Source: an uncultured Gammaproteobacteria bacterium (GTDB lineage: Bacteria; Patescibacteriota; Microgenomatia; Levybacterales; UBA12049). Taken from it: a stretch of 64,000 bases of DNA. Positions 46,292-64,000 of the stretch are shown piece after piece (within the stretch, counting starts at the first letter, position 1; every line of letters begins with the position of its first letter). Both the position numbers and the translations under genes were made by a program. The stretch is from positions 980,668 to 1,044,667 of the forward strand of contig OZ246394.1 of assembly GCA_965230895.1 (NCBI GenBank), written 5' to 3'. The notes below the pieces were generated by a model. That model was not told the DNA's origin. It did not search any database and worked only from the letters and a program-made list of their open reading frames with translations.

Positions 46292-48649
46292 TTATCTGCT
46301 GAATCGCTTCTTTGGACCGAATTTTCCTCGGCCTCCACTGCGCTTTTCATCATTTTCTCTTTGCAATTGTCGTGACAATGGATGATCTGATCGAGGTCGG
46401 TCTCCACCACGGTCATTGCGATCATTTCTTCGATTGTTGTTAAATGGTCTACCACTTGGACGATCAAACGATCGTTGTCCTCGATCATCGCCACTACCTT
46501 GTGGTCGATCAAAGTTTGGTTGTCGTTCTTCTCCACCTTCATCCTCAGATGGCCCTTCGTCATCACCAAGAAGCATTGTTAAATTAATTCTTCCTTGCTG
46601 ATCTTTCTCTTCAATCTTTACTCGGACAACATCTCCAATTGCAACAACTTCTGCTGGATCTTTGACAAATCCTCGCTTCATTTTACTAACATGAACCATG
46701 CCTTCTCGTCCTGGAAGATATTCAACAAATGCCCCGAATGGAAGGATTCTCTTTACTTCTCCTTCAAATTCTTCACCTGGGACAACTTCTCGAGTCATGC
46801 CACTGATCCAATCAACGGCTTTCTGTACTGATTCTGCTGAAACACCTGTGATACTTACTTTTCCATCATCATCAATGTCGACATCAGCACCTGTTGTCGC
46901 AATGATATTTTTAATATTCTTTCCACTTGGTCCGATAACTTCACCAATCTTTTCAACTGGAACATGAATTTGCTCAATCTTTGGAGCGTATTCTGAAACT
47001 GCTGCCCGAGGTTCTGAGATTGCATTGACGATTACTTCAAGGATATGCATTCGTGCTGTTCGAGCTCGAGCCAAAATTTCTGAAACCTGTTGGTCAGTAA
47101 GACCTGGGATCTTAACATCTAATTGGATTGCTGTAATACCCTTTTCAGTACCAGCAACTTTGAAATCCATGTCACCTGAGAAATCTTCAAGCCCGATGAT
47201 GTCAGTCAAAAGAGTGTATTTATCACCTTCAGACATCATACCGATTGAAATACCAGCGACAGGAGCAGTGATAGGAACACCAGCGTCCATCAAAGCAAGT
47301 GTTGATCCGCAAGTTGATCCCATTGAACTTGAACCGTTTTGTGAGAGTACTTCTGATACAACTCGGATCGTATATGGGAAATCTTCTTTCGCTGGAAGCA
47401 CTGCTCGCAGTGCTTTTTCAGCCAAAGCACCGTGTCCGATTTCTCGTCGACCTGGAGTTCCAACACGTCCAGTCTGACCAAACGAATATGGAAGACCTGA
47501 ATAGTGATGCATGTAGTGTCGTGATTCTTCACCTTCTGCAGTTTCAATAAGTTGCTCCATTCGTGGAGATCCAAGTGTCGCAATACTTAAAACTTGAGTC
47601 AAACCTCTTTGGAATAGACCTGATCCATGTACTCGAGGGATGAGGCCAACTTGTCCAGTGATTTCACGAAGTTCATCAACTTTTCGGCCATCTGCTCGCT
47701 TTTGCTTGTTAACAACATCTGATCGGATCATCTTGAACATAACTTTTTCGAGCGCTGCTGCAAGTGTTTTCTTATCAATATCCTCTGTTGGATTCTTCAA
47801 TTTGAATTCATCATACACTTTGTCGACGAGAATACCAGTTTCGTTTCCGCCACCTTCTTTGCCTACTCGAGTCTGAATGATTTTTTGGATATCTTCTTTA
47901 TAAGTCTTTTCAAACAAATTGATTGCTTCAGTAAGTTCAGCATCTTGCTGTGGAACTGGAAGTTTTTCTTGTCCTACCTTTTTGACAAGTTCTTCAATTG
48001 ATGCAATAACTTTTCGTGTTTCTTCGTGAGCTTTTACAATACCTTCATGAACAATTTCTTCACTTACCTGCATTGCTCCTGTTTCAATCATGTTTGTAAG
48101 ATCTTTTGTCTGTGAGACTACAAGATCAAGATCTGAAATCAATTGTTCAGGACGTGTTGGATTACTGATAAATCCACCTTCTTCTGTGTATCCCATACGT
48201 ATACCTGCAACTGGACCATTCCAAGGGATTCGAGAGATAGCAAGTGCTGCAGAAACAGTATTGAATGCAACCATATCCGCATCATTATCTTCATCTATAG
48301 AAAGGATTGTAATTATAACTTGAACATCGTGCTTGAATGCTTTAGGGAAAAGTGGGCGAATTGATCGATCGATAAGTCTACCTGTGAGGATTGCATCATC
48401 TGATGGACGACCTTCTCTTTTTACCCATCGACTACCTTTAATTCTTCCACCTGCATACAGTCTTTCCTGCACTTCAACTGAAAGTGGGAAGTAATCAAGT
48501 GAGCTTTCGCCACCTTCAACAACTGTGACAAGAACAACTGTATCGCCAAGTCGGCCAAGTACTGCTGCTGTTGCTTGTGGAGCAAGTTCGCCTGTTTCAA
48601 ATGTTAAAGTCTTTCCTGCAAATTCAGCAGAGACTGAGGTTTTATTCAT
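46292..48649 (-). CDS. pnp: Polyribonucleotide nucleotidyltransferase (PNPase) with Arg/Gly/Asp-rich C-terminal tail
   Basis: 785 aa; two RNase PH domains, KH and S1 domains, then a ~100-aa low-complexity tail (RG, RND and DR repeats). Confidence 0.95.
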   Translation of the reverse strand: MNKTSVSAEFAGKTLTFETGELAPQATAAVLGRLGDTVVLVTVVEGGESSLDYFPLSVEVQERLYAGGRIKGSRWVKREGRPSDDAILTGRLIDRSIRPLFPKAFKHDVQVIITILSIDEDNDADMVAFNTVSAALAISRIPWNGPVAGIRMGYTEEGGFISNPTRPEQLISDLDLVVSQTKDLTNMIETGAMQVSEEIVHEGIVKAHEETRKVIASIEELVKKVGQEKLPVPQQDAELTEAINLFEKTYKEDIQKIIQTRVGKEGGGNETGILVDKVYDEFKLKNPTEDIDKKTLAAALEKVMFKMIRSDVVNKQKRADGRKVDELREITGQVGLIPRVHGSGLFQRGLTQVLSIATLGSPRMEQLIETAEGEESRHYMHHYSGLPYSFGQTGRVGTPGRREIGHGALAEKALRAVLPAKEDFPYTIRVVSEVLSQNGSSSMGSTCGSTLALMDAGVPITAPVAGISIGMMSEGDKYTLLTDIIGLEDFSGDMDFKVAGTEKGITAIQLDVKIPGLTDQQVSEILARARTARMHILEVIVNAISEPRAAVSEYAPKIEQIHVPVEKIGEVIGPSGKNIKNIIATTGADVDIDDDGKVSITGVSAESVQKAVDWISGMTREVVPGEEFEGEVKRILPFGAFVEYLPGREGMVHVSKMKRGFVKDPAEVVAIGDVVRVKIEEKDQQGRINLTMLLGDDEGPSEDEGGEERQPNFDRPQGSGDDRGQRSFDRPSGRPFNNNRRNDRNDRGGDRPRSDHPLSRQLQRENDEKRSGGRGKFGPKKRFSR

Positions 48650-49066: not shown

Positions 49067-50071
49067 TTAAACGTCTGTAGATCCTTTGTAGACCTTAGGT
49101 GTCAGCCAATCGAGTGGCGGAGCATCATCTTGTTGATCTGCTGTTTGTGCTGCAGGCTGTGGCGCAGGTTGAGGTGCGGGCGCTTGAGCCGGAGCCGGTG
49201 CTGCTTGTGGTCTCGGTGCTGGAGCTGGCTGCGGTCGTGGAGCTGGCGCTGGTTGTTGTGTTGGTCTTGGTTGCGCTTGTGGTCTTGGTGCTGGGATCGC
49301 ATCTGCTGCTTGGTCAGCATATTGTCTTGGCGCTGGTTGTCCACTAACTCTTCGTGCTCCACGCTTCATTAAGAATGCTGAAACTTCAAATGCTAAAGAA
49401 CTTGTTCGTGGATCTTGGAAATTCTTTGTCGCAGTCATAATACCACTTAATAAATTCTGTGCTGCATCTTGTTCGATCTGGAATCCAAGTGTCAAAACAA
49501 TATCTGCAACATGTTCACTGATAGATGAAGATTGAGGATCGATAAGAACGATATCACCATAACCTTGGTTGTTTGCTTTATTATCAATGTTAATAATACT
49601 GATATTTGAGAACTTCTGTTCATCAAAAACATCACCAAGATCAGAAAGACTTGCAGCACCTACGGTAATTAAAAGATCAATCGTACCACTACCACGTGTG
49701 TATCGAACATCTTGCTCATCAAAGGAAAGACCTTGTTCTGAAGCTTTTACAATAATGTTCAAGAAATTATTTTCAAGTGTATATGAAACTTTTTCGATCT
49801 CTCCTTCTTGATATGGGAAAGATACCACTAAATCACCTGCGTCTCCGCCAAATGCGCGTTGTACTTTATTAATTCCAACTAATGAAGAAATTTCTACTAT
49901 AGGGTCTGATGGACTTGCAATACTCACTTTCTTGTTTGCATTCTTAAGAAGTAAATAAAGCGCAAGAGCTGCACCCATCTCATCGACTGAAGGTTCACGG
50001 CCAACGGCAATACCAATACTATTGCTTTTGCCAATTGCATCTTTAAGTTTTTGAATTATATTTTTATCCAT
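49067..50071 (-). CDS. DHH-family (NrnA-like) protein with degenerate catalytic motifs and Pro/Ala/Gln-rich C-terminal tail
   Basis: 334 aa. Occupies the position held by NrnA/CnpB-like DHH genes in actinobacterial nusA-infB-rbfA operons. By-eye alignment suggests DHH motif I (REPSVDEMG) and the DHH and GGGH motifs are replaced (IDNKA, RGARR). About 80-aa tail of PAPRPQ-type repeats. Confidence 0.5.
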   Translation of the reverse strand: MDKNIIQKLKDAIGKSNSIGIAVGREPSVDEMGAALALYLLLKNANKKVSIASPSDPIVEISSLVGINKVQRAFGGDAGDLVVSFPYQEGEIEKVSYTLENNFLNIIVKASEQGLSFDEQDVRYTRGSGTIDLLITVGAASLSDLGDVFDEQKFSNISIINIDNKANNQGYGDIVLIDPQSSSISEHVADIVLTLGFQIEQDAAQNLLSGIMTATKNFQDPRTSSLAFEVSAFLMKRGARRVSGQPAPRQYADQAADAIPAPRPQAQPRPTQQPAPAPRPQPAPAPRPQAAPAPAQAPAPQPAPQPAAQTADQQDDAPPLDWLTPKVYKGSTDV

Positions 50072-51671: not shown

Positions 51672-52682
51672 TTACTTCTCTTCTGAATCTGATTTCTCAG
51701 CTTCAGAATCCTCAGTTGCTTCTACCGCAACTCCATCTTTTCCTTCAATTTCAATTCGGTATTTTGTCAATTTGTATGCAAGTCGTACATTTTGGCCATC
51801 TTTTCCAATTGCCAAAGATAATTCATCTTGTGGGACAAATACATGTGCAACTTTTTCAGCTTCATCAATTTCTACACGAACATTCTTTGCTGGAGAGAGC
51901 GCTTGAGCAATATATGTTGCAGTATCCTCAGACCATTGGATGATATCAATCTTTTCAAGTCCACCCAATTCTTGGATGATAGCTTGTACTCTTACACCCT
52001 TTTGTCCCACGCATGAACCGACTGGATCGATACCTGGTTGTGTTGAGAAAACAGCAATCTTTGCTCTATTTCCAGGCTCACGAACAACTGCTTTAATTTC
52101 GACACTACCTTGTGCAACTTCTGGAACTTCTCGCTTAAATAATCCTTCAAGTAAACCATTATGCGCTCGGGAAACAACAATTTCTTCACCTTTTGAACCT
52201 TGGCGAATTTCAGAAAGGAAAAATACCAATCTTTGATTCAAATGATATTTTTCATTTGAAATTTGCTCTGAAACAGGCATAATGGCCTCAGCTTTCCCTA
52301 TATCAACAATGATATTTGGACCTGCAAATCGAAGTACCATACCATTTACAATTTGTCCAATTTTAACTCGGTAATCAGTAAATATTGCTTCCTTTTCTTT
52401 CTCTCTTATTTTCTGGAGAATAACTTGCTTTGCAGTTTGCGCAGCAATACGTCCGAATCCTGGAGGTGTAACATCCTTATCATTTTGGAAAATTTTTGCT
52501 TCACCTGAATTAGGATCCAATACTGCTCGGTATTCATCAACCTCAACACCAGGGTGATCTTTCCGATATGCTGCCAAGATAGCGTTCTGGACGGTATCAA
52601 GCACAACATCGACGTCAACCCCTCGTTCTGAGGCGACTTGATTTAAAGCTAATGCGAATTCACTACGTTGTATAGCTGGCAT
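51672..52682 (-). CDS. nusA: Transcription termination/antitermination factor NusA (no AR1/AR2 domains)
   Basis: N-terminal, S1, KH1 and KH2 domains. The ORF-track start at 52733 is a TTG; homology favours the ATG at 52682 (MPAIQRSEFALALNQVASERGVD...). Confidence 0.85.
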   Translation of the reverse strand: MPAIQRSEFALALNQVASERGVDVDVVLDTVQNAILAAYRKDHPGVEVDEYRAVLDPNSGEAKIFQNDKDVTPPGFGRIAAQTAKQVILQKIREKEKEAIFTDYRVKIGQIVNGMVLRFAGPNIIVDIGKAEAIMPVSEQISNEKYHLNQRLVFFLSEIRQGSKGEEIVVSRAHNGLLEGLFKREVPEVAQGSVEIKAVVREPGNRAKIAVFSTQPGIDPVGSCVGQKGVRVQAIIQELGGLEKIDIIQWSEDTATYIAQALSPAKNVRVEIDEAEKVAHVFVPQDELSLAIGKDGQNVRLAYKLTKYRIEIEGKDGVAVEATEDSEAEKSDSEEK

Positions 52683-52735
52683 AGAGCTTAGTATACCAGA
52701 TACAAGCGTAACCTTCAACCACCGCGTGGGCAAGA

Positions 52736-55700
52736 TTATGGAGCAACTTCGTTGGAGGTAATCGACTGTATACGAACTAACTCTGGTAGATTAACGACAA
52801 AATCGAGCCGCTGAACAATTTGAAGGGAAGGATTATCAAGATTATTACCGCATAGATCTCTATTATTCTGAAGCTTTCCACCTGATTGTGCTGCATTAAC
52901 GATGAGTACACCTGCAATGTTTAAGCGTAGATCTGCACAGGTGTTTGTACTTTGCATAATAAATGATTTATCTGTACTAAAGATTCCTGCAAGGTTTGTA
53001 GTACTGGAGCTTGGGGCAGACCCAACGGTTGGAGGGACGATAATATTTCCGGAGACGGAGAAAACGACTGTGGAACCGACAGGAGTAACAATATTCCCTT
53101 TAATAGTCAGGTTGCCATTAATAATAAACACATAATGTTGATTCGCCGGGAAAGTAAATCCATTCAAGGAGACGTCACCTGTTGCAGTATACGTTCCTTG
53201 TGGTAGCGTAACTGGCAACGTGCAATTCGAAAGAGTACAAATCGTTGATAGATTTGTTGGAGTCGTATCAGAGGCTTTTACTTTCGCACTGAGATAATCA
53301 TACGATGAGAAAATACCTCCGCTATTTGATGGCACATAAACTTCAGGATATGAATAACCTCCAACAACTTGATTTGTGCTCGATGCTTGACCTACTCCAA
53401 ATTCAGCCTGAGAATCACCAGTAAAGATTACGCCAGGTGTACTACAAGTTGGATTTGAGGTCATCATTGTTTTACCTTCTGGGACTGGATTATCAATACC
53501 ATTATCCATACGTAACTCTCCGCATTGTACCTGCATCCACGGATTGAAGTTTGTGAGATAGTAATTTAAGTTCGAAATATCACCCGGAAGCGTTGTTACA
53601 GTACCGGTCCTACTTTCTTCATTTCCAAATGTATTCATATTATTTAATCCTGAAGCATATTCAGCTTCGATCCAATCTGCAGAACGAGCAACTCTCGCCA
53701 TACGTACTTCGTCAATTTTTCCATCAAAGCACCATGCATAATCAGCCGAGCACGCACCATTGATATCAGCTTGTCCAATTGATGAAGCCTGTGTACCATA
53801 GTCACGTAAAGTCCCGGTATAAGTATTCCCATTGCGTAAAGCTCCATCTACATAGAGGTTCTCCCGCTTTGTTGCCGTATCAACGGTCTCAGCAACGTGG
53901 CGCCAGGTTCCAGAAGTATAAGGAGAAGCGCTTGCACCATAAGCAGTACCTGAAGTGTTATAAACAGTTGAAAACCAGTTACTTCCACTCGCAAAACGAA
54001 GTCCAGTATGCTGCCCTCTTTTTCCTACAACGAAATAATCGTTAAGTCCTGAGCTATTTGGATTTGTATCGGGATTTGCCCAAGCTGTATACGTGAAATT
54101 AGCTTCTGTCAAATCCTGCAGGCTTGAGGAATTAGGAATTGTTATTTTATCGTTTCCGGATGTTCCTCCGTCAAAGTTTTGAGCATTTCCAATTCTTCCA
54201 GCATTTGTACTTAAAGTGAAACCGCTTGCTGTTCCATTATTTGCATTCGAGGTTGAATCAATAACAGTTGTTCCAGACGTTTCAGCCATATGGTAAACGG
54301 CGGCATACCCATTGCTCCAGACATTAGCCTTATTTTGTCCATCAGCTGCATTAGAATTATTGTAGTACATCCAAATATAGTCAGCGTTTGAATTTGCATC
54401 AATTTGAGGAACTTTAACCCAAAGATCCGACGTTCCGTTTTCATCCCATTTTTCAATTTCATGTGCCAATAACGTCACTCCATCAGCGTCTACAAAGCGA
54501 ACATCCTGACCTAGGTTCTGAGTTTTTGCGTAATCCACATTTGTGCTATTCAACGAAACTCTCAAGGGGAAATTGACTAAGCTTTCTGCTGATGCTGTGT
54601 TATTGATAGTTATCTTTTTTCGGGATAACCATTTCGGATCCCACCAGTCTATTGTAGGTTCTTCAGCTGAGATACCATCACTCGTGTAAACTTCAATTCC
54701 AGAAAGATTAAAATCCCCTCCTGTTTGGAAAAAGGACAGACTTCCATCTGAAACTGTTACATGATATGGTCCAAGCTTTTTCCAGGTTCCTGCGTTACCA
54801 CTTTGCAAATTAGACTCCTTTGCTACCCCTTCAAAACCAATATTATATGTGGTCGATGTAGTATCTTCCCAAGTATAAACATATACTGAATACTCTCCAT
54901 TGGTTATGGGAATTTCTGCGTTCAGTTGGATATTGCCGCCTCTCCATATTGAAGATCGTAGCATTTGTGCCTTATTTGCACTAACTGAAGGACTTAACGT
55001 AATTCCTTGGTTCTGGAAATTTGTACCATTTGTTGTAATTCCTGCTGCAGATTGAGCTTGAAATGTTGTACCATCTACGTCTAATTGTGGTCCGTTAAAG
55101 TTCACTGCTTTTATAAGAGTATTCGCTGGCAGCGTTGAACTTGGTGTTCCTTCATACAATTGCACATCGTCGATCCAAACTGTTCCAGTTGCAGTTGCAA
55201 CTTGGAATCCTACAAGAGCATTATCTGTTGTTTCTGTTGGCTGGAATGTATATGTATATTGCTGCCAACTACTCGTAAGCGATGCAGTCTTGCGAGTGTA
55301 AAGAGTATACGGATCATTCCCGTTTTGGACAATCGCATCCATAGTCCTGTTTCCCGAGGCCTTTGCCCAAAAGCTTAATGTATAGGTTTTGCCTGCAGAA
55401 ACTGGGACGCCGTAGGTTGCAAGTTCTAAATCTTGAAGATTGCTCGTCGTCGTAGTAACGACTATTTGCGCAGAATATGCTCCATGTGTGCTTGTTGCAT
55501 TTGTAGCTGTAAATGTACCATTTGCGCTGCCTTTTTTTTGTAAGAACCAATCCGTGGTCCCCAATTCATAACTCCAATTCTGGACAAGATTCTGCCGACT
55601 GCCTGGAGTAGGAGTCACCGTAGCAGCATCGATCAATTCCATATCATCAACATAGAAACTGTTCCCAGAGACAGCTGAATCCTGGACGATATAATAATCA

Positions 55701-56185
55701 ATACTATCAACCGCTGAAGTAACTGTTACCGTAGCAGTAATTTTTTGCCAATCAGTAGTCAGATTGACGATAGGACCAGAAGTCATCGTTTTGTTACTAC
55801 CTGTCCATTGCCTCAAGATGATATGAATCGGTTTCCCAACAGCAGTTGTTGATCGAACCCAAGCTGTTGCGGTATATGTTTTCCCTACCGGAGGATTGGT
55901 AATTGGATCTTGGTTATCATCTATTGTGTAGTAGTCTCCAACTGATCTTGTTACCAGACAAGATGCAGACCCACTATGTGCGACATTTGTCACCCGTGTT
56001 AACGTTCCCTGATACGAATTCCATGAAGAAGTATTTGTTTCGCACCCGGGATTTGGGATCAGATTGGCATAAGCAATATTATGAATCGAACTTAATGAAA
56101 AAATTACCCCAGAAATAATAAGCATAAAAGCTAGTACTGTGAAGATGATTGAATGATGTTTTTTTGAAAGAAATATGCTTTTCAT
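52736..56185 (-). CDS. Large secreted surface protein: two CBM_4_9-like carbohydrate-binding modules, DUF2341 and LamG-like domains
   Basis: Start taken at the ATG at 56185 (MKSIFLSKKHHSIIFTVLAFMLI..., a signal anchor) rather than the TTG at 56236. Two repeats with NPGCE/NWSYE...W...VDDxxL CBM-like patterns, a DUF2341-like region (WWDPKWLSRKKITINN) and a concanavalin/LamG-like region. Ends 2-53 nt upstream of nusA. Confidence 0.6.
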   Translation of the reverse strand: MKSIFLSKKHHSIIFTVLAFMLIISGVIFSLSSIHNIAYANLIPNPGCETNTSSWNSYQGTLTRVTNVAHSGSASCLVTRSVGDYYTIDDNQDPITNPPVGKTYTATAWVRSTTAVGKPIHIILRQWTGSNKTMTSGPIVNLTTDWQKITATVTVTSAVDSIDYYIVQDSAVSGNSFYVDDMELIDAATVTPTPGSRQNLVQNWSYELGTTDWFLQKKGSANGTFTATNATSTHGAYSAQIVVTTTTSNLQDLELATYGVPVSAGKTYTLSFWAKASGNRTMDAIVQNGNDPYTLYTRKTASLTSSWQQYTYTFQPTETTDNALVGFQVATATGTVWIDDVQLYEGTPSSTLPANTLIKAVNFNGPQLDVDGTTFQAQSAAGITTNGTNFQNQGITLSPSVSANKAQMLRSSIWRGGNIQLNAEIPITNGEYSVYVYTWEDTTSTTYNIGFEGVAKESNLQSGNAGTWKKLGPYHVTVSDGSLSFFQTGGDFNLSGIEVYTSDGISAEEPTIDWWDPKWLSRKKITINNTASAESLVNFPLRVSLNSTNVDYAKTQNLGQDVRFVDADGVTLLAHEIEKWDENGTSDLWVKVPQIDANSNADYIWMYYNNSNAADGQNKANVWSNGYAAVYHMAETSGTTVIDSTSNANNGTASGFTLSTNAGRIGNAQNFDGGTSGNDKITIPNSSSLQDLTEANFTYTAWANPDTNPNSSGLNDYFVVGKRGQHTGLRFASGSNWFSTVYNTSGTAYGASASPYTSGTWRHVAETVDTATKRENLYVDGALRNGNTYTGTLRDYGTQASSIGQADINGACSADYAWCFDGKIDEVRMARVARSADWIEAEYASGLNNMNTFGNEESRTGTVTTLPGDISNLNYYLTNFNPWMQVQCGELRMDNGIDNPVPEGKTMMTSNPTCSTPGVIFTGDSQAEFGVGQASSTNQVVGGYSYPEVYVPSNSGGIFSSYDYLSAKVKASDTTPTNLSTICTLSNCTLPVTLPQGTYTATGDVSLNGFTFPANQHYVFIINGNLTIKGNIVTPVGSTVVFSVSGNIIVPPTVGSAPSSSTTNLAGIFSTDKSFIMQSTNTCADLRLNIAGVLIVNAAQSGGKLQNNRDLCGNNLDNPSLQIVQRLDFVVNLPELVRIQSITSNEVAP

Positions 56186-56186
56186 A

Positions 56187-59132
56187 TTATTCACACTTCG
56201 CTCCAGTTGCGCCATTTGTATTACATTCTGGGCCAAGTGTCACTTGAAATGATGGAGGAGGTCCATTGAGCGGATATGTCATCCTGTATCCAGTCGTCAG
56301 AGGAGAAACAAGGGAAACAGTATACGTTCCAGGAGGCAAAGCTCCACTAGAATACGATCCGTTTGAAGTTTCAACAGTTTTCCTCGTCGGTCCTGAGAAG
56401 AAAATAAGCATAGGATCAGTAATAAGTGTGTCTGGTGGCGCGAGATTAAGATCCTTATCAAAGTCTTTAACAATATTTCCTGAGATAGTAAATCCTGTCG
56501 CATTCCCAAAATCGATATTATCGTAGGAATTTCCAGATTCGACACTTAAATTATATGCTTTTGTATCAGTTGTCTGATACCAACCCGCCTGCACAACTTC
56601 TGTGAATGTAAAATCCTTCGTACATAATCCTGTAAATGAGAACTGGCCTGCTGAATTCGTCTTGGCGGTGATAGGAACGTCCAAATCTTCTGCTGAAGCC
56701 TGAACTGTCCAGTTATACAAGGGAAGGTCGCCTCCATCGTATACTTTATTTGTATTCTTGTCATTGAAGATCATACCGTTAACGACACCGGTTCCAATAT
56801 CTTCTGCAATACTTTGATAAATTGATTCAAGTGTTGAAGTAGATGGAGAATTGTAGAATCTTCCACCGTTCGTATCAGCAAGCTGTTGCATAAAGATAGG
56901 ATCAAACGAGCCGGATCCTTGTCCAATACCAATAACTTGATAGATAATGTTTTGTGCATTTACACCGTTAATTGTGGCGGTCATAGCAGCATTTTCAGCA
57001 GCATCAATAGAGACATTTCCCCCATTTGAACCAATTATTTGATTTGTAGCACCATCTGTCATAACAATGACAACTTTTTGAGCATTTCTTGTAGATCTAC
57101 TAAGCTCTCCATTCCCTAAAACAATTCCGCACTCTACACATGTACCGCCTCCATTATCTGGGACTGCACTAATAGCGTTTTTAATAGCGGATGTATTCGT
57201 AGTAAGTGGTTGAGAAACACGGGTATTCACATCATTTGGATAATTATTACTCCCTGAGAAAACAGTCAATCCATATTGTGCATTTTTGACATGAGAAGAG
57301 ACAATATCGATGAAGCTACTTGCTGCCCGCTTTGCGGCAAGCATTTTTGTCATACCTGTTGTTGGATCTGTTTCTTGCATACTTCCAGAATCATCAAATA
57401 CAAGCATAATATCGACACCATTTGCACTACATGATCCTCCGACCTTTGTAGTCGTACTTTCGACAATACCAAAGTTAACCGTCTTATCTGTCGAAAGCGG
57501 AAAATTAAGCGAATTTGCAGTAGTACTTCGATAACCGGTTGGCGTATCAACCCGAATTGTATAGTCACCGCTCGCCTGATCAGCAAAGAGATAGCCTCCA
57601 CTAACATCTGTTGTTTTTGTAACAGGTGTCGTCTTCGTCAATGTAACTGTTGCTCCCTGATAAAGCGGTTCACTCGGATCTAATAACCCATTCTTATTTA
57701 AATCTATAAATACTTTTCCGGTAACGTTATAAAGTGTTACCATTCCGAATTCAACTGTTTTCGCAGGCGTTCCTCCAGCAGTACCTGCAGTAGAAGGAGG
57801 AGCAAAGGTAATTGTCTGAGTGTTTGTTGTTGTACTCTTTTTCTTGGCAGGAAGTGTATATGTGATTGTATATGTTCCTGCAAAAAGATTTGGGAAAGAG
57901 AAATTTCCGGAGTTATCTGTTACAGCAGAACCTGTAGCAGTACCCGAGAGTACAATTGTTACCCCAGGTTCCACAGAGTCGCCATTACCTCGTTTTCCAT
58001 CTTCATTTTTATCTTCAAAAATCGCTCCTGAGATAGTAAAAAGAGGTACAATTCCGAAATTGAGTGTTCTATTTGGCCCTACTGTAAAATTCGCTTCCGA
58101 TGGCGTTGATGCCTGATAATTAGCGGGCAAAGGGAATTCCGCGTTATAGGTACCAGCAAAAAGCTGTGCTGTATAGCTCCCATCTGAGGCACTTCGCGCA
58201 GTTACGGTAGTAGGACCAGTAAATGTAATTGTGCCTCCAGTGTAATTACCATCACCATTATCGTCGACACTGTTTCTGTTATTGTCTAAAAATATCATTC
58301 CGGAAACTGTGTAATATTGTGCAACTCCAAAGCTTACCGACTGATTCGAGTTTAGCGTCACAGATCTTGGATTTGTATTTGTAGCCTTATATCCCCCTGG
58401 AACAGCGATTGTCACAGTATAGGTTCCAGCAAACAATGCCGGGAAAGTGAAATCTCCATTTTCATCGGTTGTTGTACTTGTTGATGTTGGACCTGACACA
58501 GAAACAGTTATGCCACTATTTCCTGATTCACCAGCATCCTTTGTTGTATCAATATCTGTATCTGTAAATACATTTCCTGAAAGAGTATGGACAAAACCAA
58601 TACCAAAATTAACAGTTTTATTGGATGTTAGAGAAACAGATTGTGGATTTGTCGAAGTATTTTTATAACCATTTGGGACAGTAATCGTAACTGTATAATC
58701 ACCCCTCGGAAGAGTCACAGAATATCCTCCCGTTAAACTTGTCGTTGTTGTTGTAGACGAGGCTCCAGTAATTGTAACAGTAACGCCACTCACCCCAGCT
58801 TCAAGTGTATCTTTATTTCCATTTGCATTTGCATCAACATAAATAGTTCCTGAAAGAACTGCCGTTGGAATAGGTGTAGGAGTCGGAGTGGATGTCGGAG
58901 GAGCAGGAGTTGGAGTGCTTGATGGTGTCGGAGATGCAACTACCTGTGCAATCAAATCACCAAGTACTCCTTGCTGCTTTTTTTCTTGCTGAGGCATAAT
59001 TAACTGCTCAATTTGTTGCAGTTTTTCTGGGTAAAAGATACTTGCAGCACTTGTAATAATTCCTACAAAAACAATCGCGACAAAAACTGTATTGATAATT
59101 TTAAAAACATTTAATCGAGGTTTTTTTAACAT
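56187..59132 (-). CDS. Large surface adhesin-like protein: N-terminal TM anchor, Pro/Thr linker, multiple SdrD-B/CnaB-type Ig-like repeats and a von Willebrand factor A domain
   Basis: 981 aa. Repeated about 100-aa units of the form GxxxxDxNxNGxxD...GYxxTxxN...NFG; vWA with a MIDAS-like DDSGSM...TDG; N-terminal TM helix FVAIVFVGIITSAASIF. Confidence 0.65.
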   Translation of the reverse strand: MLKKPRLNVFKIINTVFVAIVFVGIITSAASIFYPEKLQQIEQLIMPQQEKKQQGVLGDLIAQVVASPTPSSTPTPAPPTSTPTPTPIPTAVLSGTIYVDANANGNKDTLEAGVSGVTVTITGASSTTTTTSLTGGYSVTLPRGDYTVTITVPNGYKNTSTNPQSVSLTSNKTVNFGIGFVHTLSGNVFTDTDIDTTKDAGESGNSGITVSVSGPTSTSTTTDENGDFTFPALFAGTYTVTIAVPGGYKATNTNPRSVTLNSNQSVSFGVAQYYTVSGMIFLDNNRNSVDDNGDGNYTGGTITFTGPTTVTARSASDGSYTAQLFAGTYNAEFPLPANYQASTPSEANFTVGPNRTLNFGIVPLFTISGAIFEDKNEDGKRGNGDSVEPGVTIVLSGTATGSAVTDNSGNFSFPNLFAGTYTITYTLPAKKKSTTTNTQTITFAPPSTAGTAGGTPAKTVEFGMVTLYNVTGKVFIDLNKNGLLDPSEPLYQGATVTLTKTTPVTKTTDVSGGYLFADQASGDYTIRVDTPTGYRSTTANSLNFPLSTDKTVNFGIVESTTTKVGGSCSANGVDIMLVFDDSGSMQETDPTTGMTKMLAAKRAASSFIDIVSSHVKNAQYGLTVFSGSNNYPNDVNTRVSQPLTTNTSAIKNAISAVPDNGGGTCVECGIVLGNGELSRSTRNAQKVVIVMTDGATNQIIGSNGGNVSIDAAENAAMTATINGVNAQNIIYQVIGIGQGSGSFDPIFMQQLADTNGGRFYNSPSTSTLESIYQSIAEDIGTGVVNGMIFNDKNTNKVYDGGDLPLYNWTVQASAEDLDVPITAKTNSAGQFSFTGLCTKDFTFTEVVQAGWYQTTDTKAYNLSVESGNSYDNIDFGNATGFTISGNIVKDFDKDLNLAPPDTLITDPMLIFFSGPTRKTVETSNGSYSSGALPPGTYTVSLVSPLTTGYRMTYPLNGPPPSFQVTLGPECNTNGATGAKCE

Positions 59133-59226
59133 GCGTAATAAGAAGAGACTTCTCTCCCTATAACCATTATAGGAAGTTACTCCGCCTCAGGCAATGCTAA
59201 GATTTTAAGAAAGGATAGGAGAGAAA

Positions 59227-61635
59227 TCAGGAGACATCAGCATGAAGTGCGCCTGTACCATCAATAGTAAAGTTAACTTTTTTACCACGATCTATTTCCT
59301 TCGTCAAACGTTTCTGCGCAATAATATCTTCAACTGTATCTTGTAAATATCGTCGTAAAGGACGTGCCCCAAAGTCTTTATCAAAGCCTTCTTGCGTAAT
59401 CTTTTCAATGACGGCGTCGTCAAAAGTTAATGTAATATCCTGTGCCGCCAATGACTTTGTTAATTGAGCTAATAATAACTTTGTTACAGCAACGACTTGC
59501 TCTGGACCAAGCGGATTAAAGGTCACGACATCATCAAAACGATTGAGTAGCTCTGGTTTGAAAATACCTTTTGTTTGTAACTGCTCCAGCAACCTTTGCT
59601 CAAATTTCTTATCAATCGCAGTACCTTTCTCAACTTCTTCACGAATAAATTCTGAACCGGCATTTGACGTAGCGATAATAATTGCATTGCGGAATGATAC
59701 TGTTGTTCCTTTATTATCAGTCAATCGACCATCATCGAGAACTTGCAAGAAAAGATTATGGATTGCAGGATTTGCTTTTTCAAATTCATCGAGCAAAATA
59801 AGTGATGCTGGATTATCATGAATTTTATCAGTCAGTTGGCCTCGGTCTTCTCCCTCGCCAGGTGCAGCTCCCAATAATCGCTTTAATCCATTCTCGTCAG
59901 TATATTCACTCATATCCAAACGAATCATGTGCTGCTCTCCTCCAAAGTAAAATTGTGCTAAAGCTTTCGCAGTCTCTGTCTTACCGACACCCGTCGGACC
60001 TAAAAAGAGAAAAGAAATAGGACGTTCACTGGTCGTCATACCAGAGCGGATACGTCGCATTGCTTCACTAATCGCTTTCACCGCGGTATCCTGGGCAATA
60101 ACTCGCTCATGCAGCTTGTCTTCGAGATGTAAGAGCAGATTAATTTCTTGTCCTGTTGGGAGTGCAATTGAAACATGGCTTGTTGCTTCGACTTTTTTAA
60201 CAACATCTTGTTCGAGCACCATCTTACGATGTGACTTTTCAAATGATGGACGTTCTTTTTCCTGAGAAACAGAATTAGCCACAGTTTCAAGCAAAGAGAC
60301 TGCACTTCCTGGTAAAACTTGATCCTGAAAAAAACGATTAGCAAGTTCAACAGCACTCAAAACTGCACGATAACTGATAATTACTCCATAGGTATTTTCT
60401 ATTTTAGCTGCTTCTCCTAATACCATCTGGATCGCATTAGCAGGCTCAACCGGTTTTAGTTCAACAACGGCAAAGGCCTCTTTTAAAGGATTTTTTTCCA
60501 TATACGTTTTGTAACTTCCAGTTGTCATTGTGGCGACCATGGGAATATTTCCACTTTTTAGGTATGGCAAAAGCGCACCTGAAAGATCCAGTCCATATGA
60601 TGATGCACCTAATATATTTTGAAAATCAGGGATATAGACAAATACATCATTTGCATGAGAGATCTCGGCAATAATATTTTGTAGTCGTAATTCAAGGTCA
60701 TTACGATTTCCAGCACCAGCTGTTAGCGCTCCGACCAGTAATTGGAAAATTCGCTTATGATTAAGATAGCCGCCTAGATTTCCAGTGAAACTATGATACG
60801 CAAGCGCTCGGACTAAGTTCTCTTTTCCTGATCCGATATCGCCGACGATAAGCACATTATTATTTTCAATTTTCGTAAGCCCTTCCAAAACCATTTTAAA
60901 TTCTGACTCTCGCCCACCAATATGTGGTTCTGTTCTTAAAGCGTAGTTTGTAAATAATGCAGTATATTTTTTTGTTTCAGGAGTCCAACCTGAGGTAAGC
61001 GCTTCACCAATTCCTCCACCTGCAAAATTAATTCGTACCGGTTTTGGATTTTCTTCATCTGGTAAGTCGAGACGAACCCAATAGAGGATATTGTATAAGT
61101 CTGTTATCTTGAGCTGTTTGGCAAATAATATCTTTGTATCCTTTTCAATTAAGAAGAGATATGCCACAAGAACATCCAAGGTGGTTACATACTTTGCTTT
61201 AAATGTCTGAGCTGTTTGAAATGCACTTTGTGCAAGTAATTTTTTATCAACTTCCTGCACTACAAGATCTTTACTGGTGATATTAGCTTTTTGCAGGACA
61301 AGTTTCACTTGAGGGTAAGTCATAAGGCGCTTAATTAATGACGTTGCGTTAGGTTCTGTTATAAATCCATACAATGCAGCCATAGTAAATGATTCATACA
61401 TATTCTCTTCTTTATTTTTGGAGACTTCAATTTTGGGAACTGCACGGCTTATCTTGTAATGAAAGAATACCTCAAACATTACAAACAGATTAAAAAGAAA
61501 AACACTAAAGTTGGCTGGAATATCATTTGATACTTGATACAGTATTAAAGACAATAGCATCGCACAAGCGACAAGTCTGATGCTTCGCACGAGTGCGGTT
61601 CTATAAAATCGGTATAGTCGGACAGATAATTCCAT
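59227..61635 (-). CDS. Membrane-anchored Hsp100/Clp-family AAA+ protein with degenerate first nucleotide-binding domain
   Basis: 802 aa. Two N-terminal hydrophobic helices. D1 Walker A GDIGSGKEN (consensus GxPGVGKT) and Walker B VFVYIPDF (DE lost). D2 is intact (GPTGVGKTE, ILLDEFEKA, GARPLRR). Confidence 0.7.
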   Translation of the reverse strand: MELSVRLYRFYRTALVRSIRLVACAMLLSLILYQVSNDIPANFSVFLFNLFVMFEVFFHYKISRAVPKIEVSKNKEENMYESFTMAALYGFITEPNATSLIKRLMTYPQVKLVLQKANITSKDLVVQEVDKKLLAQSAFQTAQTFKAKYVTTLDVLVAYLFLIEKDTKILFAKQLKITDLYNILYWVRLDLPDEENPKPVRINFAGGGIGEALTSGWTPETKKYTALFTNYALRTEPHIGGRESEFKMVLEGLTKIENNNVLIVGDIGSGKENLVRALAYHSFTGNLGGYLNHKRIFQLLVGALTAGAGNRNDLELRLQNIIAEISHANDVFVYIPDFQNILGASSYGLDLSGALLPYLKSGNIPMVATMTTGSYKTYMEKNPLKEAFAVVELKPVEPANAIQMVLGEAAKIENTYGVIISYRAVLSAVELANRFFQDQVLPGSAVSLLETVANSVSQEKERPSFEKSHRKMVLEQDVVKKVEATSHVSIALPTGQEINLLLHLEDKLHERVIAQDTAVKAISEAMRRIRSGMTTSERPISFLFLGPTGVGKTETAKALAQFYFGGEQHMIRLDMSEYTDENGLKRLLGAAPGEGEDRGQLTDKIHDNPASLILLDEFEKANPAIHNLFLQVLDDGRLTDNKGTTVSFRNAIIIATSNAGSEFIREEVEKGTAIDKKFEQRLLEQLQTKGIFKPELLNRFDDVVTFNPLGPEQVVAVTKLLLAQLTKSLAAQDITLTFDDAVIEKITQEGFDKDFGARPLRRYLQDTVEDIIAQKRLTKEIDRGKKVNFTIDGTGALHADVS

Positions 61636-61642
61636 AATCTAA

Positions 61643-62020
61643 TTACAAAAATAATAACCAAATCGTTGCAAACGGCAAGAATATATAACCCAGAAACACA
61701 GTAATTTCAAAGAGAAGTAATAGGAAAAGCATTAATACATCAGCAAGAATAAGCCATGTTTTGACAAAGATACCCATAGCCCTTGAAAAACCGACTAATC
61801 CTTGTCTGTATTCATTTTTTATAGGTTGAAAGTACGTCTTTATAAAAAGTGGTAATGAAAATAGATGAAAAAATGAGCTATTCAGGGAAGCAAAGAACTG
61901 GAGTAAGGAAAGTGGACTTTCATAAAACCAAAATTTTAAAAATAGAATCGGTACATTTAAATAGCTTCTATGCCAAACAAAATGAGGTAAGTGAACCTGG
62001 ACAGGTTTTGTATTTTTCAT
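61643..62020 (-). CDS. Small polytopic membrane protein (125 aa)
   Basis: Highly hydrophobic, Phe/Leu-rich; ends 7 nt before the start of the membrane-anchored Clp-like gene. Confidence 0.35.
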   Translation of the reverse strand: MKNTKPVQVHLPHFVWHRSYLNVPILFLKFWFYESPLSLLQFFASLNSSFFHLFSLPLFIKTYFQPIKNEYRQGLVGFSRAMGIFVKTWLILADVLMLFLLLLFEITVFLGYIFLPFATIWLLFL

Positions 62021-62129: not shown

Positions 62130-64000
62130 TTATTCTATTTCTTCGTGGCGGGATTGTGGCGCGACATAATTTACTGGCCGGAAGTTTGATGGAATTCCAG
62201 AGTAATTGTATGCTGACTGAGATGCCATTGCTGCACCATTGGACGCTACACCGTTTGCAGGTGGAGGCGTACTATCTACAGCACCATTTGGAAGACTTGT
62301 TGGAGCTGGAGTCTGGAAAACAGGTCCGGTATTCTCCGCTGGTGCATTTGTTGGCGCTTGCGGTGTAGTTGGTGCTGCTGCAGGATTATTAACAGCAGCT
62401 CCACCTGGTGCAGGAGCAACTGGTTCAGGCGCTGTTGGAGTATTTGCCGCTTGTCCATCAGTTGCTTGTGTCGGATTCTGATTAGGAGCCTGTGGAGCGC
62501 CACCTGGAACATTTTGTGGTTGATTAGCGTCTTGTCCCTCTGAAGGTTTTGACTCAGCGCTTTCAGCCGGCTTCACATCACTTGAATCAGATGATTGTCC
62601 GCCTTGTTCTGCTGAACCTTGATCATCAGGAGCAATATTCTTAACTCCTGCTGCTTCAAGTACCATAATTGCAATTTCATCCTTTTGTTGAGCTGCAGCA
62701 ACCATATCAGCAACCATCTTTTCTAATTCTTCATATTTTATAGTATCTTTGACACTAAGTACTGCTGCTGCTAATGCGTTACCTTTTTGACTTGCTTCAT
62801 TAAGCTTCGTTTGAACAGCAGTATACTTCTCTTTGTCTGCTGGTAATTCAGCTGTAACTGGATTATTAATTAACAGTAACGTTTTCTTAAAGTTACGCAG
62901 TGGTTGATGAGCCAGCTCTTCTTCAATTATCTTTAATATCTCAGTTGCTAATGGATCACCAGATTCTTTTGCAGCTTGCAACTCTTTTTGAATTCCAGCA
63001 ATGTCATCATCAGATGTGATATCAGTAATCGCAAGAATCTTTGTAGCTAAAGGATTACCTTCAGTCTTTGCTTTTTGCATCTTCTCGTAGACAACATTAA
63101 ATTGATCTTTAACTTCAGGGTCAGCGAGATACAATGGATTAATCAATTGTTTTAATACATTCTTAAACTTGGTAACAGGCTCTTCTTCATGTGCTGCCTC
63201 TGCTTCTTCGACAAGCTCACTATTTACTGCCGCGAGAATATCCTCAGCAAGGCTATCTTCATTTTCCTTTGCAACCTTCAATTCTGCCATCAAATCTTCA
63301 ATAGCTGCATCGGTTGTTGTATCGTTCACAGCAAGAATCTTTGCTGCCAAAGCATTTCCACGCTGATTTTCCATAGTCAGTTTCTCATGAAGTTCCATGA
63401 AACGAACCTTCTTATTACTATCTTTAATATTATCTGGATGAATGATCTCAAGAAGGATTTGCTTAAGCTTCAATGAGGCTTGGATCTGCTGTGCCATACT
63501 ATTTGCAAGTTCAATAATTTCGAAAGCTAGATTGTCACCTTTAGCTTTTGCTTCTTCAATTTGCTTACGTAAGGTTTGGATTTGCTTCAAATCTGTTGAA
63601 ACTGTTACTTCAAGGATGCTGCTTGCCATTGCATTCTTTTCAGTACGAGCTTGCGTTAATTTGTCGTGGAGGACAATAAAGCGTGATTTATCTGTAGTAC
63701 TTGTTATATTGTCTGGATTTGCCAAGTTAATCAAAACTGTTCGGAACTGCTCATCTGTAAGTGGAGCGACTGTTGCACCCGCACCACCCTTATTGAAGAC
63801 AAACTCATTGGTATTATCACTGTAATCGATCACAATTGTATCTCCAGCAACAAACTTCTTTGAAATAATTGCTAACGCAATGGGATTTTCAATAGCAGTT
63901 TGAACGAGTCTTCGGAGTGGTCGAGCACCATAGACTGGGTCATAACCATCTTTTGCCAATTGATTAACAGCTTTTTCAGTGATTTGAAGGTTAAAGCCTT
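62130..64000 (-). CDS. ClpB/ClpC-like AAA+ chaperone (5' end outside the window) with a ~540-aa C-terminal extension of four ~95-aa repeats plus a Pro/Ala/Gln/Asn-rich tail
   Basis: The frame is open to the window edge. The region near 63900-64000 encodes the D2 small domain (GYDPVYGARPLRRLVQTAIENP). Then come four degenerate repeats sharing F..LH.KL...T.GN.LA..IL.V.D.T.D..I..L..EL..AK..GD.LA.EIL, then a low-complexity tail. Confidence 0.7.
   Translation of the reverse strand, partial: GFNLQITEKAVNQLAKDGYDPVYGARPLRRLVQTAIENPIALAIISKKFVAGDTIVIDYSDNTNEFVFNKGGAGATVAPLTDEQFRTVLINLANPDNITSTTDKSRFIVLHDKLTQARTEKNAMASSILEVTVSTDLKQIQTLRKQIEEAKAKGDNLAFEIIELANSMAQQIQASLKLKQILLEIIHPDNIKDSNKKVRFMELHEKLTMENQRGNALAAKILAVNDTTTDAAIEDLMAELKVAKENEDSLAEDILAAVNSELVEEAEAAHEEEPVTKFKNVLKQLINPLYLADPEVKDQFNVVYEKMQKAKTEGNPLATKILAITDITSDDDIAGIQKELQAAKESGDPLATEILKIIEEELAHQPLRNFKKTLLLINNPVTAELPADKEKYTAVQTKLNEASQKGNALAAAVLSVKDTIKYEELEKMVADMVAAAQQKDEIAIMVLEAAGVKNIAPDDQGSAEQGGQSSDSSDVKPAESAESKPSEGQDANQPQNVPGGAPQAPNQNPTQATDGQAANTPTAPEPVAPAPGGAAVNNPAAAPTTPQAPTNAPAENTGPVFQTPAPTSLPNGAVDSTPPPANGVASNGAAMASQSAYNYSGIPSNFRPVNYVAPQSRHEEIE

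Follow-up and report, generated by a model that had tools for sequence, protein, structure and literature searches.

A putative two-part, lectin-bearing surface assembly encoded next to nusA in a Levybacteria genome

Gene organization upstream of nusA

The present analysis concerns two adjacent genes, here named A and B, that lie directly upstream of nusA in a 64,000-nucleotide stretch of contig OZ246394.1 (assembly GCA_965230895.1, positions 980,668 to 1,044,667), referred to below as the window. An earlier reading, made from the DNA alone (the sequence-only reading), had assumed a small, reduced-genome organism, and the window indeed belongs to Candidatus Levybacteria (Microgenomates, within the candidate phyla radiation (CPR), or Patescibacteria). 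Of the 80 nusA loci in the genome collection that are closest to this one, almost all come from metagenome-assembled genomes of Levybacteria or other Microgenomates. On the minus strand, open reading frames together with Pfam and NCBIfam searches give the gene order ClpB-like, A, B, nusA, infB (490 aa), a DHH-family gene, rpsO and pnp (Table 1).

The two open reading frames lie on the minus strand exactly where the sequence-only reading had placed them, and the vWA, CnaB-type repeat, CBM, DUF2341 and LamG domains that it had recognized all score above the Pfam gathering thresholds. With ~1,000 codons, 40% G+C and Pfam E-values down to 1e-59, these frames are far beyond chance. Their share of about 10 percent of the window had been taken as a large investment; the pair amounts to only ~0.4% of the genome, the longest known B-bearing contig measuring 1.61 Mb.

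In the program-made list of open reading frames, B starts at a TTG at 56236 (52736..56236, 1166 aa) and overlaps A by 50 nt. Since in the orthologues only 1-5 nt separate the A stop from the B start, the ATG at 56185, 1 nt past the TAA of A, is the likelier start; it gives a protein of 1149 aa and removes the 50-nt overlap. The TTG start listed for nusA at 52733 is an artefact. From the B stop to the nusA ATG (52682) there are 53 nt, so that the pair does abut nusA, as had been stated. A and B would form one transcription unit, because the spacing between them is 1 nt here and 1-5 nt in the orthologues, and because a promoter-like site lies upstream of A. This site is kept as TTGC(C/T)T-17-(T/C)ATAAT in the sister genome (locus L004) and in two further lineages (L098 and L099).

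Table 1. Positions of the genes, protein domains and promoter-like sites discussed in the text (window coordinates)
Feature	Position	Strand	Basis
nusA, 336 aa from conserved MPAIQRSEF start	51672..52682	-	NCBIfam NusA 2e-95, Pfam
nusA promoter (predicted), TTGAAG-17-TATACT with upstream TG, ends 7 nt before ATG	52690..52718	-	Consensus scan and conservation
Gene B, 1149-aa multi-lectin protein	52736..56185	-	Open reading frame, ATG 1 nt after A stop, Pfam, orthologues L004, L098, L099
X domain, ~290 aa, about B residues 860-1149, Cys-containing, ending ...EVAP	52736..53614	-	AF2, family alignment
Laminin_G_3 (ConA-like lectin), B residues 676-839	53669..54160	-	Pfam 1.2e-20, 74.6 bits vs 27.6
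DUF2341, B residues 559-640	54266..54511	-	Pfam 1.3e-13, 51.6 bits vs 23.4
MID, beta-jelly-roll, B residues 357-506	54668..55117	-	AF2 model, Foldseek
CBM_4_9 no. 2 (CBM2), B residues 199-329	55199..55591	-	Pfam
CBM_4_9 no. 1 (CBM1), B residues 41-166	55688..56065	-	Pfam 3.4e-9, 37.6 bits vs 25.9
Gene A, 981-aa stalk protein	56187..59132	-	Open reading frame, Pfam
Two C-terminal SdrD_B-like repeats of A, ending ...YPLNGPPPSFQVTLGPECNTNGATGAKCE	56190..56762	-	Family alignment/consensus
vWA domain of A, residues 574-773, complete MIDAS	56814..57413	-	Pfam VWA, VWA_2
Five tandem SdrD_B repeats of A, residues 92-560	57453..58859	-	Pfam
Hydrophobic segment of A, about residues 10-32, probable signal anchor	59037..59105	-	Only Kyte-Doolittle window >=1.6 in A
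Promoter-like site of A-B, TTGCCT-17-TATAAT	59166..59194	-	Consensus scan; function predicted
ClpB-like AAA+ gene, 802 aa, left border of variable slot	59227..61635	-	Pfam

Gene A encodes a predicted stalk protein with a vWA domain

The product of gene A, found as the exact protein on three metagenome contigs, combines an N-terminal hydrophobic anchor and a Pro/Thr linker with five SdrD_B repeats, a vWA domain and two further SdrD_B-like repeats. SdrD_B, a CnaB-type stalk fold, matches in six stretches (E 2e-59), and seven repeats are seen by inspection. The five tandem ones are ~92 aa long and start at residues 93, 184, 276, 367 and 470; several of the repeats contain D-x-N-x-N-G motifs resembling Ca loops, and a repeat search of 52500-59400 detected two weak DNA-level repeat families (D1 and D2) in the stalk region. 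The name "CnaB-repeat" used in the sequence-only reading is thus acceptable as a description of the fold type.

The vWA domain matches VWA (PF00092, E 1.3e-12, 48.8 bits against a cutoff of 23.8) and VWA_2 as well. Its metal ion-dependent adhesion site (MIDAS) reads DDSGS ... GGT ... TDG and is conserved in 10 of 10 aligned family members. As this corresponds to the D-x-S-x-S ... T ... D motif of functional MIDAS domains, metal binding by A is predicted.

The N-termini of A orthologues are comparable to that of A and have no obvious AXA cleavage site. A and B have one hydrophobic segment each, at the N-terminus, a pI of 4.6-4.8 and a composition rich in Thr, Ser, Asn and Gly; these features mark both products as extracytoplasmic, in line with the surface location first proposed for them.

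The only sequence match of A in the PDB is the B region of SdrD, and A shares with SdrC and SdrD, Sdr-family microbial surface components recognizing adhesive matrix molecules (MSCRAMMs), a stalk of Ca-binding, CnaB-type SdrD_B beta-sandwiches. In contrast to those proteins, A contains neither the dock-lock-latch A-region nor Ser-Asp repeats, and it has no SdrG_C_C or Big_8 match in Pfam. Sequence inspection and Pfam also found no LPXTG motif (the C-terminus is ...GATGAKCE), S-layer homology (SLH) domain, C-terminal sorting domain (CTD) or dockerin in A, and the NCBIfam models for SdrD (81 bits against a cutoff of 2500) and SdrC (53 against 1700) fall far short of their cutoffs. Membership of A in the Sdr family of MSCRAMMs was consequently rejected.

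Fibrillar-adhesin-like proteins are defined by a known adhesive domain, such as vWA, combined with tandem stalk domains (PMC8286594). VWA is the second commonest adhesive domain in the same survey, and nearly half of the fibrillar-adhesin-like proteins carry no known anchor (PMC8286594). SdrD_B is a named stalk domain (PMC9210967). With its VWA match and tandem SdrD_B repeats, A falls within this definition, the N-terminal hydrophobic segment being all that it offers on the anchor side.

Gene B encodes a predicted secreted multi-lectin protein

From its ATG start, B begins with a signal peptide (MKSIFLSKKHH, a hydrophobic core, and AYA followed by NL), continues with two CBM_4_9 modules, a CBM6/35-like module that we call MID, DUF2341 and Laminin_G_3, and ends with a large C-terminal domain designated X. 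The carbohydrate-binding modules (CBMs) of the CBM_4_9 family (PF02018) match in two stretches with E 8e-19 and 68.9 bits in total. The second, CBM2, matches CBM4 of laminarinase 16A (1gui, 8e-11) and CBM4-2 of a xylanase (1k42) in the PDB, and the CBM4 modules were the only part of B matched in that sequence search.

MID gave no Pfam match even at E <= 1. Its AF2 model, with a predicted local distance difference test score (pLDDT) of 80.8, was matched by Foldseek to 7ehg, 2vzr and 2xon (7e-5 to 4e-4). On the basis of the modelled fold, MID would be a CBM6/35/61-like module and the third CBM-like module of B. B is thus not a "double-CBM" protein, a description that leaves out both this third jelly roll and the C-terminal beta-solenoid described below. 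Glycan binding by the CBM, LamG and DUF2341 modules is predicted. Pfam shows no catalytic domain in B, and neither A nor B has a Dockerin_1 or Cohesin match at E <= 0.01, which sets both apart from cellulosome components.

X defines a family of C-terminal, beta-solenoid-like domains

X is not covered by any Pfam model; at E <= 1 its single match is DUF7305 (E 0.06), on which a literature search returned nothing relevant. The AF2 model of a 292-aa fragment (mean pLDDT 75.7, above 90 in a core at ~110-240) shows a single helix and, after it, short strands stacked on one another. Its best Foldseek match in the PDB is the ice-binding-like solenoid 5b5h of the DUF3494/IBP-1 type (E 3.2e-3, template modelling (TM) scores 0.40/0.50, root-mean-square deviation 8 A), and in the viral structure library BFVD nothing was significant, the best match again being a DUF3494 protein (E 0.5). 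As in the DUF3494/IBP-1 and ComZ solenoids retrieved by these searches, the model points to a right-handed beta-solenoid with an alpha-helix; unlike them, X has no Pfam match above threshold, aligns with TM scores of only 0.4-0.5 and has its own Cys pattern and the C-terminal EVAP. The model thus suggests a beta-solenoid of the IBP-1-like type, which we do not place in the DUF3494/IBP-1 family.

The minor-pilin solenoid of Thermus ComZ (6qvi) was also among the Foldseek matches of X, with E 0.3-0.9. Adhesins with a vWA domain at the tip are established for Gram-positive and type IV pili. On these grounds, A and B might belong to a type IV (or sortase-type) pilus, at its tip or as accessory proteins, with a vWA domain that acts like that of PilY1 or RrgA and an X domain that acts like ComZ. 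The ComZ matches are, however, far from significant, and neither a class III prepilin signal nor the G/FTLxE motif occurs in A, B or nine N-termini of the X family, all Sec-type by inspection. LPXTG is likewise missing, and the loci inspected contain no pilin, PilB/C/T or sortase gene. We therefore rejected a type IV (pseudo)pilin or ComZ-like minor pilin, and regard a pilus-tip role as very improbable.

A profile search with X against 1.84 billion representative proteins retrieved 2,483 clusters at E <= 1e-3, 710 of them at <= 1e-30. Among the 150 best hits, only three have a match that stops short of the last few residues of the protein, and the proteins that carry X range in total length from about 275 to 1,600 aa. 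Among the close relatives are stand-alone proteins made of a signal peptide and X (306-320 aa), a ricin-lectin+X protein and SdrD_B+X proteins, including a paralogue of 428 aa in the window's own genome (P0023). When 60 further members were scanned with Pfam, SdrD_B was found in 36 and VWA in 5; other members carry CBM96, F5/8 type C, PA14, CBM_4_9 or CARDB, and one matches DUF7305 at 1.6e-6. The family alignment contains Cys residues that are invariant, and nearly all members end in ...(Q/E)EVAP. These sequence comparisons point to a common grammar, in which one or more variable binding modules are followed by an SdrD_B stalk and a constant C-terminal X.

Lectin modules are exchanged between close relatives

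In the sister genome, NusA is 97% identical to that of the window, the ClpB-like protein 92% and A 85-92%. The modules of B range far more widely: X is 90% identical, MID 84%, DUF2341 82% and CBM2 77%, down to 48% for LamG and 40% for CBM1. In L098 the order in B is CBM2-like, DUF2341, LamG, CBM1-like, MID and X, and in L099 it is CBM1, DUF2341, LamG, MID, an unassigned stretch and X, with no CBM2. The lectin modules of B are thus reordered or replaced between close relatives while X is conserved. Such a mosaic would fit a recognition protein whose specificity modules are exchanged and whose X domain is held constant.

Two of these modules have relatives in secreted proteins elsewhere in the lineage. 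At 57% identity, MID resembles the module found at the N-terminus of a GH140-like enzyme (Apiosidase + Collagen_bind_2; P0007) of the sister genome; CBM1 resembles, at 54% identity, the N-terminal module of P0011, a protein that bears a dockerin. Moreover, the window's genome contains a paralogous locus (L089, 5757-15876), next to the genes for dCTP deaminase and thymidylate synthase. The products of this locus are, one after another, a protein of 402 aa, the first of two vWA/SdrD_B proteins (739 aa), an SdrD_B protein of 248 aa, P0023 with its SdrD_B+X architecture, the second vWA/SdrD_B protein (888 aa), and finally a dockerin and a cohesin protein. The Dockerin_1 (9e-6) and cohesin (3e-6) scores are only just above threshold, and the cohesin protein is small and hydrophobic at its N-terminus. 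Clusters of the same type, with a stand-alone X protein right after the first vWA protein, occur in L091 and L093, and in L091 two extra GH140-like genes follow directly after the X protein. The vWA proteins of this cluster type end in dockerin-like Ca-binding motifs (D.NDD..VN..DYN.F), which suggests a cohesin-dockerin surface assembly in this CPR lineage. A cluster of this kind is also present in L008. A literature search returned nothing relevant on Levybacteria dockerins or Levybacteria carbohydrate-active enzymes.

These links raise the possibility that A and B serve nutrition rather than host attachment, as non-catalytic parts of a cellulosome-like, glycan-degrading extracellular system in which B would hold polysaccharide of plant, algal or microbial origin at the cell surface for glycosidases encoded elsewhere. 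In this regard, B resembles scaffoldins in being a non-catalytic multi-CBM protein that shares modules with a GH140-like enzyme and a dockerin protein, the CBM2 matches are to CBMs of polysaccharide-degrading enzymes, and cohesin and dockerin genes stand beside vWA and X proteins in the paralogous locus. Taken together, the GH140-like, dockerin and cohesin links favour a polysaccharide substrate as the target. On the other hand, A and B contain no cohesin or dockerin of their own, no enzyme is encoded at their locus, and the cohesin and dockerin calls of the paralogous locus are marginal. Stalks of SdrD_B combined with vWA are typical of adhesins and not of scaffoldins, and the replacement of lectin modules among near-identical genomes is more typical of partner recognition, though it is also seen in the loci of carbohydrate-active enzymes. 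The vWA/stalk architecture and the rapid turnover of the head modules favour partner recognition. We consider polysaccharide capture a possible but minority explanation, with perhaps one chance in a few of being correct.

Origin of the gene pair

In several members of the X family (L054_989, P0045, P0061, L095 and L097) the gene is unsplit and the last SdrD_B repeat continues directly into X, with the junction consensus ...GY.(L/M)(T/S)YP(L/R)NGPPPSF.V.VG..C...G...A.C....I.NLNFGI.N..PW.Q..C.D.R.D.G.... A ends at precisely this point (...GYRMTYPLNGPPPSFQVTLGPECNTNGATGAKCE, followed by the stop), a few residues before the start of X, and its last 30 residues match the segment that directly precedes X in the unsplit members; the X domain of B, in turn, begins ...GDISNLNYYLTNFNPWMQVQCGELRMDNG. 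Since A stops at a junction that is continuous in the canonical proteins, A and B together represent a split SdrD_B-vWA-SdrD_B-X gene. A gene of the unsplit type, of 989 aa with the order SdrD_B-VWA-SdrD_B-X, occupies the same chromosomal slot, between the ClpB-like gene and nusA, in L054, whose NusA is 87% identical to that of the window, and P0006 combines CBM_4_9, SdrD_B, VWA and X in one chain of 1354 aa. Genes of this presumed ancestral type are common in Levybacteria and related CPR bacteria.

The simplest reading of these alignments is that a lectin cassette, in which a stop and a new signal peptide precede the lectin modules, was inserted at the SdrD_B-X junction and thereby split the gene; the opposite direction, deletion and fusion of a split form, is a less simple alternative. 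The split is common to four lineages (the window, L004, L098 and L099), with the same end residue of A and with B following 1-5 nt on, which makes it old enough to have been maintained, both halves being intact.

The association between vWA and X is frequent but not obligatory in the family, because in four other loci (L094-L097) the fusion partner of X is SdrD_B and a vWA domain is missing. The statistics on vWA-X adjacency rest on 11 loci, and a scan with a tighter X alignment gave only 5.

A proposed two-part adhesin-like assembly

Our findings allow us to propose, with somewhat better than even confidence, that A and B form a two-part, glycan-binding, adhesin-like assembly of the cell surface, encoded in one transcription unit and arisen by cassette insertion. 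According to this model, A would be tethered by its N-terminal hydrophobic segment, and its Pro/Thr linker and stalk of seven SdrD_B beta-sandwiches would present the MIDAS-bearing vWA domain. B would be exported by its Sec signal peptide and would display five lectin-type modules followed by the constant X solenoid, its lectin cassette having entered the SdrD_B-X junction of the ancestral gene together with a signal peptide of its own. X may keep B on the cell in one of two ways, by re-associating with A, once its covalent neighbour, at the vWA MIDAS and/or the final SdrD_B repeat, or by attaching to the envelope; the exchangeable lectin modules may recognize glycans, whether these belong to a partner cell or to polysaccharide particles. 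By analogy, X as an envelope-docking module for the whole family would fit the adhesive-stalk-anchor grammar of fibrillar adhesins and the frequent lack of a known anchor among them (PMC8286594). The adhesin- or lectin-like surface apparatus put forward in the sequence-only reading is the best functional reading of the pair, and the place of A among fibrillar-adhesin-like proteins is in line with it (PMC8286594, PMC9210967).

Several points weigh against this proposal. The contact between A and B and the cell association of either protein are themselves predictions, and Pfam revealed no known anchor motif (LPXTG, SLH, dockerin or CTD) in A or B; if the N-terminus of A were cleaved, A would be released rather than tethered. 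The fold match of X is weak (Foldseek E 3e-3, TM 0.4-0.5), and residues 1-23 and 66-99 of the X model are poorly modelled. A promoter scan of the region gave 30 sites against 27.7 expected by shuffling, which is not significant, so that the promoter calls carry weight because they are conserved across loci and not from the scan count. Finally, the sharing of B modules with glycosidases and dockerin proteins makes substrate capture equally compatible with the data as cell-cell adhesion, including the attachment of an episymbiont to its host that the sequence-only reading considered.

A more specific and rather doubtful variant of the proposal, to which we give somewhat less credence than to polysaccharide capture, is that X is a CPR-wide docking module. 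Following the split, X would bind the terminal SdrD_B or the vWA domain of A, maybe through its C-terminal Glu at the MIDAS, yielding a two-piece adhesin with swappable heads; the invariant Glu of the EVAP terminus is a speculative candidate for the MIDAS ligand. If X does dock to A, the conserved stalk could take exchangeable heads, B and perhaps stand-alone or paralogous X proteins, and so change the binding specificity of the cell. X, a family of 2,400 or more clusters at 50% identity, would then be the missing anchor or dock domain for many surface proteins of ultra-small bacteria.

The proposed assembly has counterparts in several known systems. Fibrillar-adhesin-like proteins (Monzon, Lafita & Bateman 2021) share with A the vWA domain and tandem stalk, and the X family follows the same grammar and the same rapid modular evolution; in the present case, by contrast, the system belongs to a CPR bacterium, LPXTG, CTD and SLH are lacking, the head sits on a separate polypeptide, and the terminal module is an unannotated beta-solenoid. 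Proteins with DUF2341 have been proposed to function in adhesion or host interaction in Patescibacteria (PMC11809585). B resembles these giant DUF2341/LamG proteins in bearing DUF2341 within a large secreted CPR protein, but they exceed 4000 aa and contain FhaB-like regions (PMC11809585), whereas B has 1149 aa, carries CBMs and X, and is paired with a vWA stalk protein.

The giant RTX or "periscope" adhesins, such as MpIBP of Marinomonas, combine an anchored Ig-like extender with sugar-binding, vWA-like peptide-binding and beta-solenoid modules, and A-B follows the same concept. In contrast to these adhesins, A-B has no RTX or type I secretion signal and no extender homology, is split into two proteins, and includes a solenoid that is only weakly DUF3494/IBP-1-like.

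Large LamG, DUF2341 and vWA surface proteins of CPR bacteria are already known in outline. New here are the split of the gene, the shuffling of the cassette, the large unannotated C-terminal X family and the hotspot next to nusA. CPR bacteria are thought to live attached to cells or particles, and their attachment proteins are mostly unknown and unannotated. The A-B pair constitutes a concrete candidate for such an attachment system, and the swapping of binding modules between near-identical genomes is what would be expected for the recognition of partners or substrates. In addition, the X family, with about 2,500 representative clusters and an almost always C-terminal position, could be used to find surface proteins of this kind systematically.

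The slot between the ClpB-like gene and nusA is variable

In most Levybacteria this slot is empty. At least 11 (L013, L014, L015, L019, L020, L022, L026, L027, L028, L031 and L070) have the ClpB-like gene less than 150 nt upstream of nusA, and comparison of these loci identifies it as the ancestral direct neighbour. In other loci the slot holds unrelated cargo: a 691-aa secreted beta-helix/Big_7 protein (L012), a DUF3800 protein (L011), small membrane or secreted proteins (L023 and L024), NUDIX-like cargo, and genes on the opposite strand encoding 148 aa and 136 aa (L021 and L029). The comparison thus reveals a variable hotspot in which the A-B pair is a lineage-specific occupant, and a hotspot for surface-protein cargo. 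Likewise, L098 (1694-4339) encodes, between the long ClpB gene and the small membrane protein, a secreted protein of 881 aa whose domains are Fervidolysin-like, Peptidase_S8 and polysaccharide-lyase, which is another sign of secreted-protein cargo gathering in the ClpB/nusA neighbourhood.

The sequence-only reading had named a recent insertion with mobile-element scars as a finding that would tell against it. The first half of that picture is borne out, the pair being lineage-specific and absent from the 11 or more genomes listed above; the scars were not found. No direct or inverted repeats bracket the insert in a search of 52500-59400, the gene calls inspected include no integrase, transposase, phage structural gene or tRNA at the locus, and the G+C content of A-B (0.40-0.41) is that of the rest of the window, with no compositional shift. 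A mobile-element origin of A-B was rejected on these grounds. A related suggestion, that A and B are phage-derived receptor-binding proteins or the remnant of a mobile island, could draw on the lineage-specific insertion in a variable hotspot and on a match of the CBM region to the NCBIfam "phage head spike fiber domain" (1.5e-11). That model overlaps an ordinary CBM_4_9 jelly roll, however, the viral structure search gave nothing significant, and the locus and its flanks are vertically conserved in four lineages. Together with the unremarkable G+C content and the lack of phage genes and flanking repeats, this makes such an origin the least credible of the explanations considered here.

The pair had also been said to lie where rimP usually sits. 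The upstream neighbours of nusA were scanned in 63 related loci, and ten of them (nine from CPR genomes and the outgroup L088) were analysed with Pfam. Among the nine CPR neighbours other than ClpB-like genes, three are DnaJ-like (L033, L036 and L049), three are ribosomal L25 (L058, L063 and L080), one is a TPR protein, one a DUF3800 protein and one has no hit. RimP is upstream of nusA in 0 of these 9 loci and is absent from the window locus; it was found (DUF150_C, 2.5e-15) only in the actinobacterial outgroup. Replacement of rimP was thus ruled out by the neighbours of nusA in related loci: nothing has been replaced.

A few features of the ClpB-like neighbour deserve mention. The 802-aa protein has a hydrophobic, apparently membrane-spanning N-terminus, and only its D2-type AAA module matches at full strength. 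Its gene is always preceded by one for a small (108-125 aa) hydrophobic protein (61643-62020 on the minus strand in the window; also L004, L011, L012, L023, L024 and L054), a conserved pair that is unusual for Clp/Hsp100 proteins. Further upstream (62130-63959, minus strand) lies the C-terminal part of a very long ClpB homologue, of 1431 aa in the sister genome, with about four helical repeats of ~90 aa past the D2-small domain (NP.NI.. / ..LH.KL..A...GN.LA..IL.V) and a long tail rich in Pro, Ala and Gln.

nusA has its own conserved, predicted promoter

Read-through from the pair into nusA had been considered likely. A putative, strongly conserved nusA promoter of the form GGTTGAAG-N17-(TG)gTATACT ends 7-11 nt before the ATG across Levybacteria (L004-L031, L054 and L070), and the arrangement GGTTGAAG ... 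TGGTATACT ... ATG is seen in most of ~26 Levybacteria nusA upstream regions, whatever gene precedes; it is absent in the Gottesmanbacteria-type loci L033, L038 and L042. The Levybacteria nusA start has no Shine-Dalgarno sequence. These observations indicate that nusA-infB is probably expressed autonomously, on an mRNA that has no leader or almost none. Since the spacer between B and nusA contains no terminator-like hairpin, transcription may run on into nusA to some extent; nusA would not need it, and comparison of the loci lends such read-through no functional support.

A stronger version of the same idea holds that the position itself is functional, A-B being coupled to nusA-infB by read-through in the place of rimP so as to co-regulate their expression. 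The common strand, the short spacer without a hairpin and the maintenance of the arrangement in four lineages speak for it. Against it stand the conserved nusA promoter, independent of what lies upstream, the fact that the slot is empty in at least 11 relatives and filled with unrelated cargo in others, and the missing rimP in the sampled CPR loci. We judge this coupling improbable, and the proximity of the pair to nusA may well carry no regulatory meaning. The two features that had looked anomalous, giant genes standing "in place of rimP" and read-through that may reach nusA, are normal for the lineage and need no special explanation.

Downstream genes and related records

The operon nusA-infB-DHH-rpsO-pnp is without rbfA and truB, and its IF2 is short (490 aa) and without the N-terminal region. 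The DHH-family protein encoded after infB (49067-50071, minus strand) has a C-terminal tail of ~90 aa rich in Pro, Ala and Gln with PAPRPQ repeats, and PNPase (46292-48649, minus strand) a C-terminal extension of ~90 aa rich in Arg, Gly and Asp.

Several of the nearest records (L011, L014, L015 and others) are titled "uncultured Gammaproteobacteria", "Acidiferrales", "Limnocylindrales" or "Methylomirabilota". Their NusA proteins are 77-92% identical to that of the window and their synteny is unchanged; the titles evidently reflect mis-assigned taxonomy or bin contamination.

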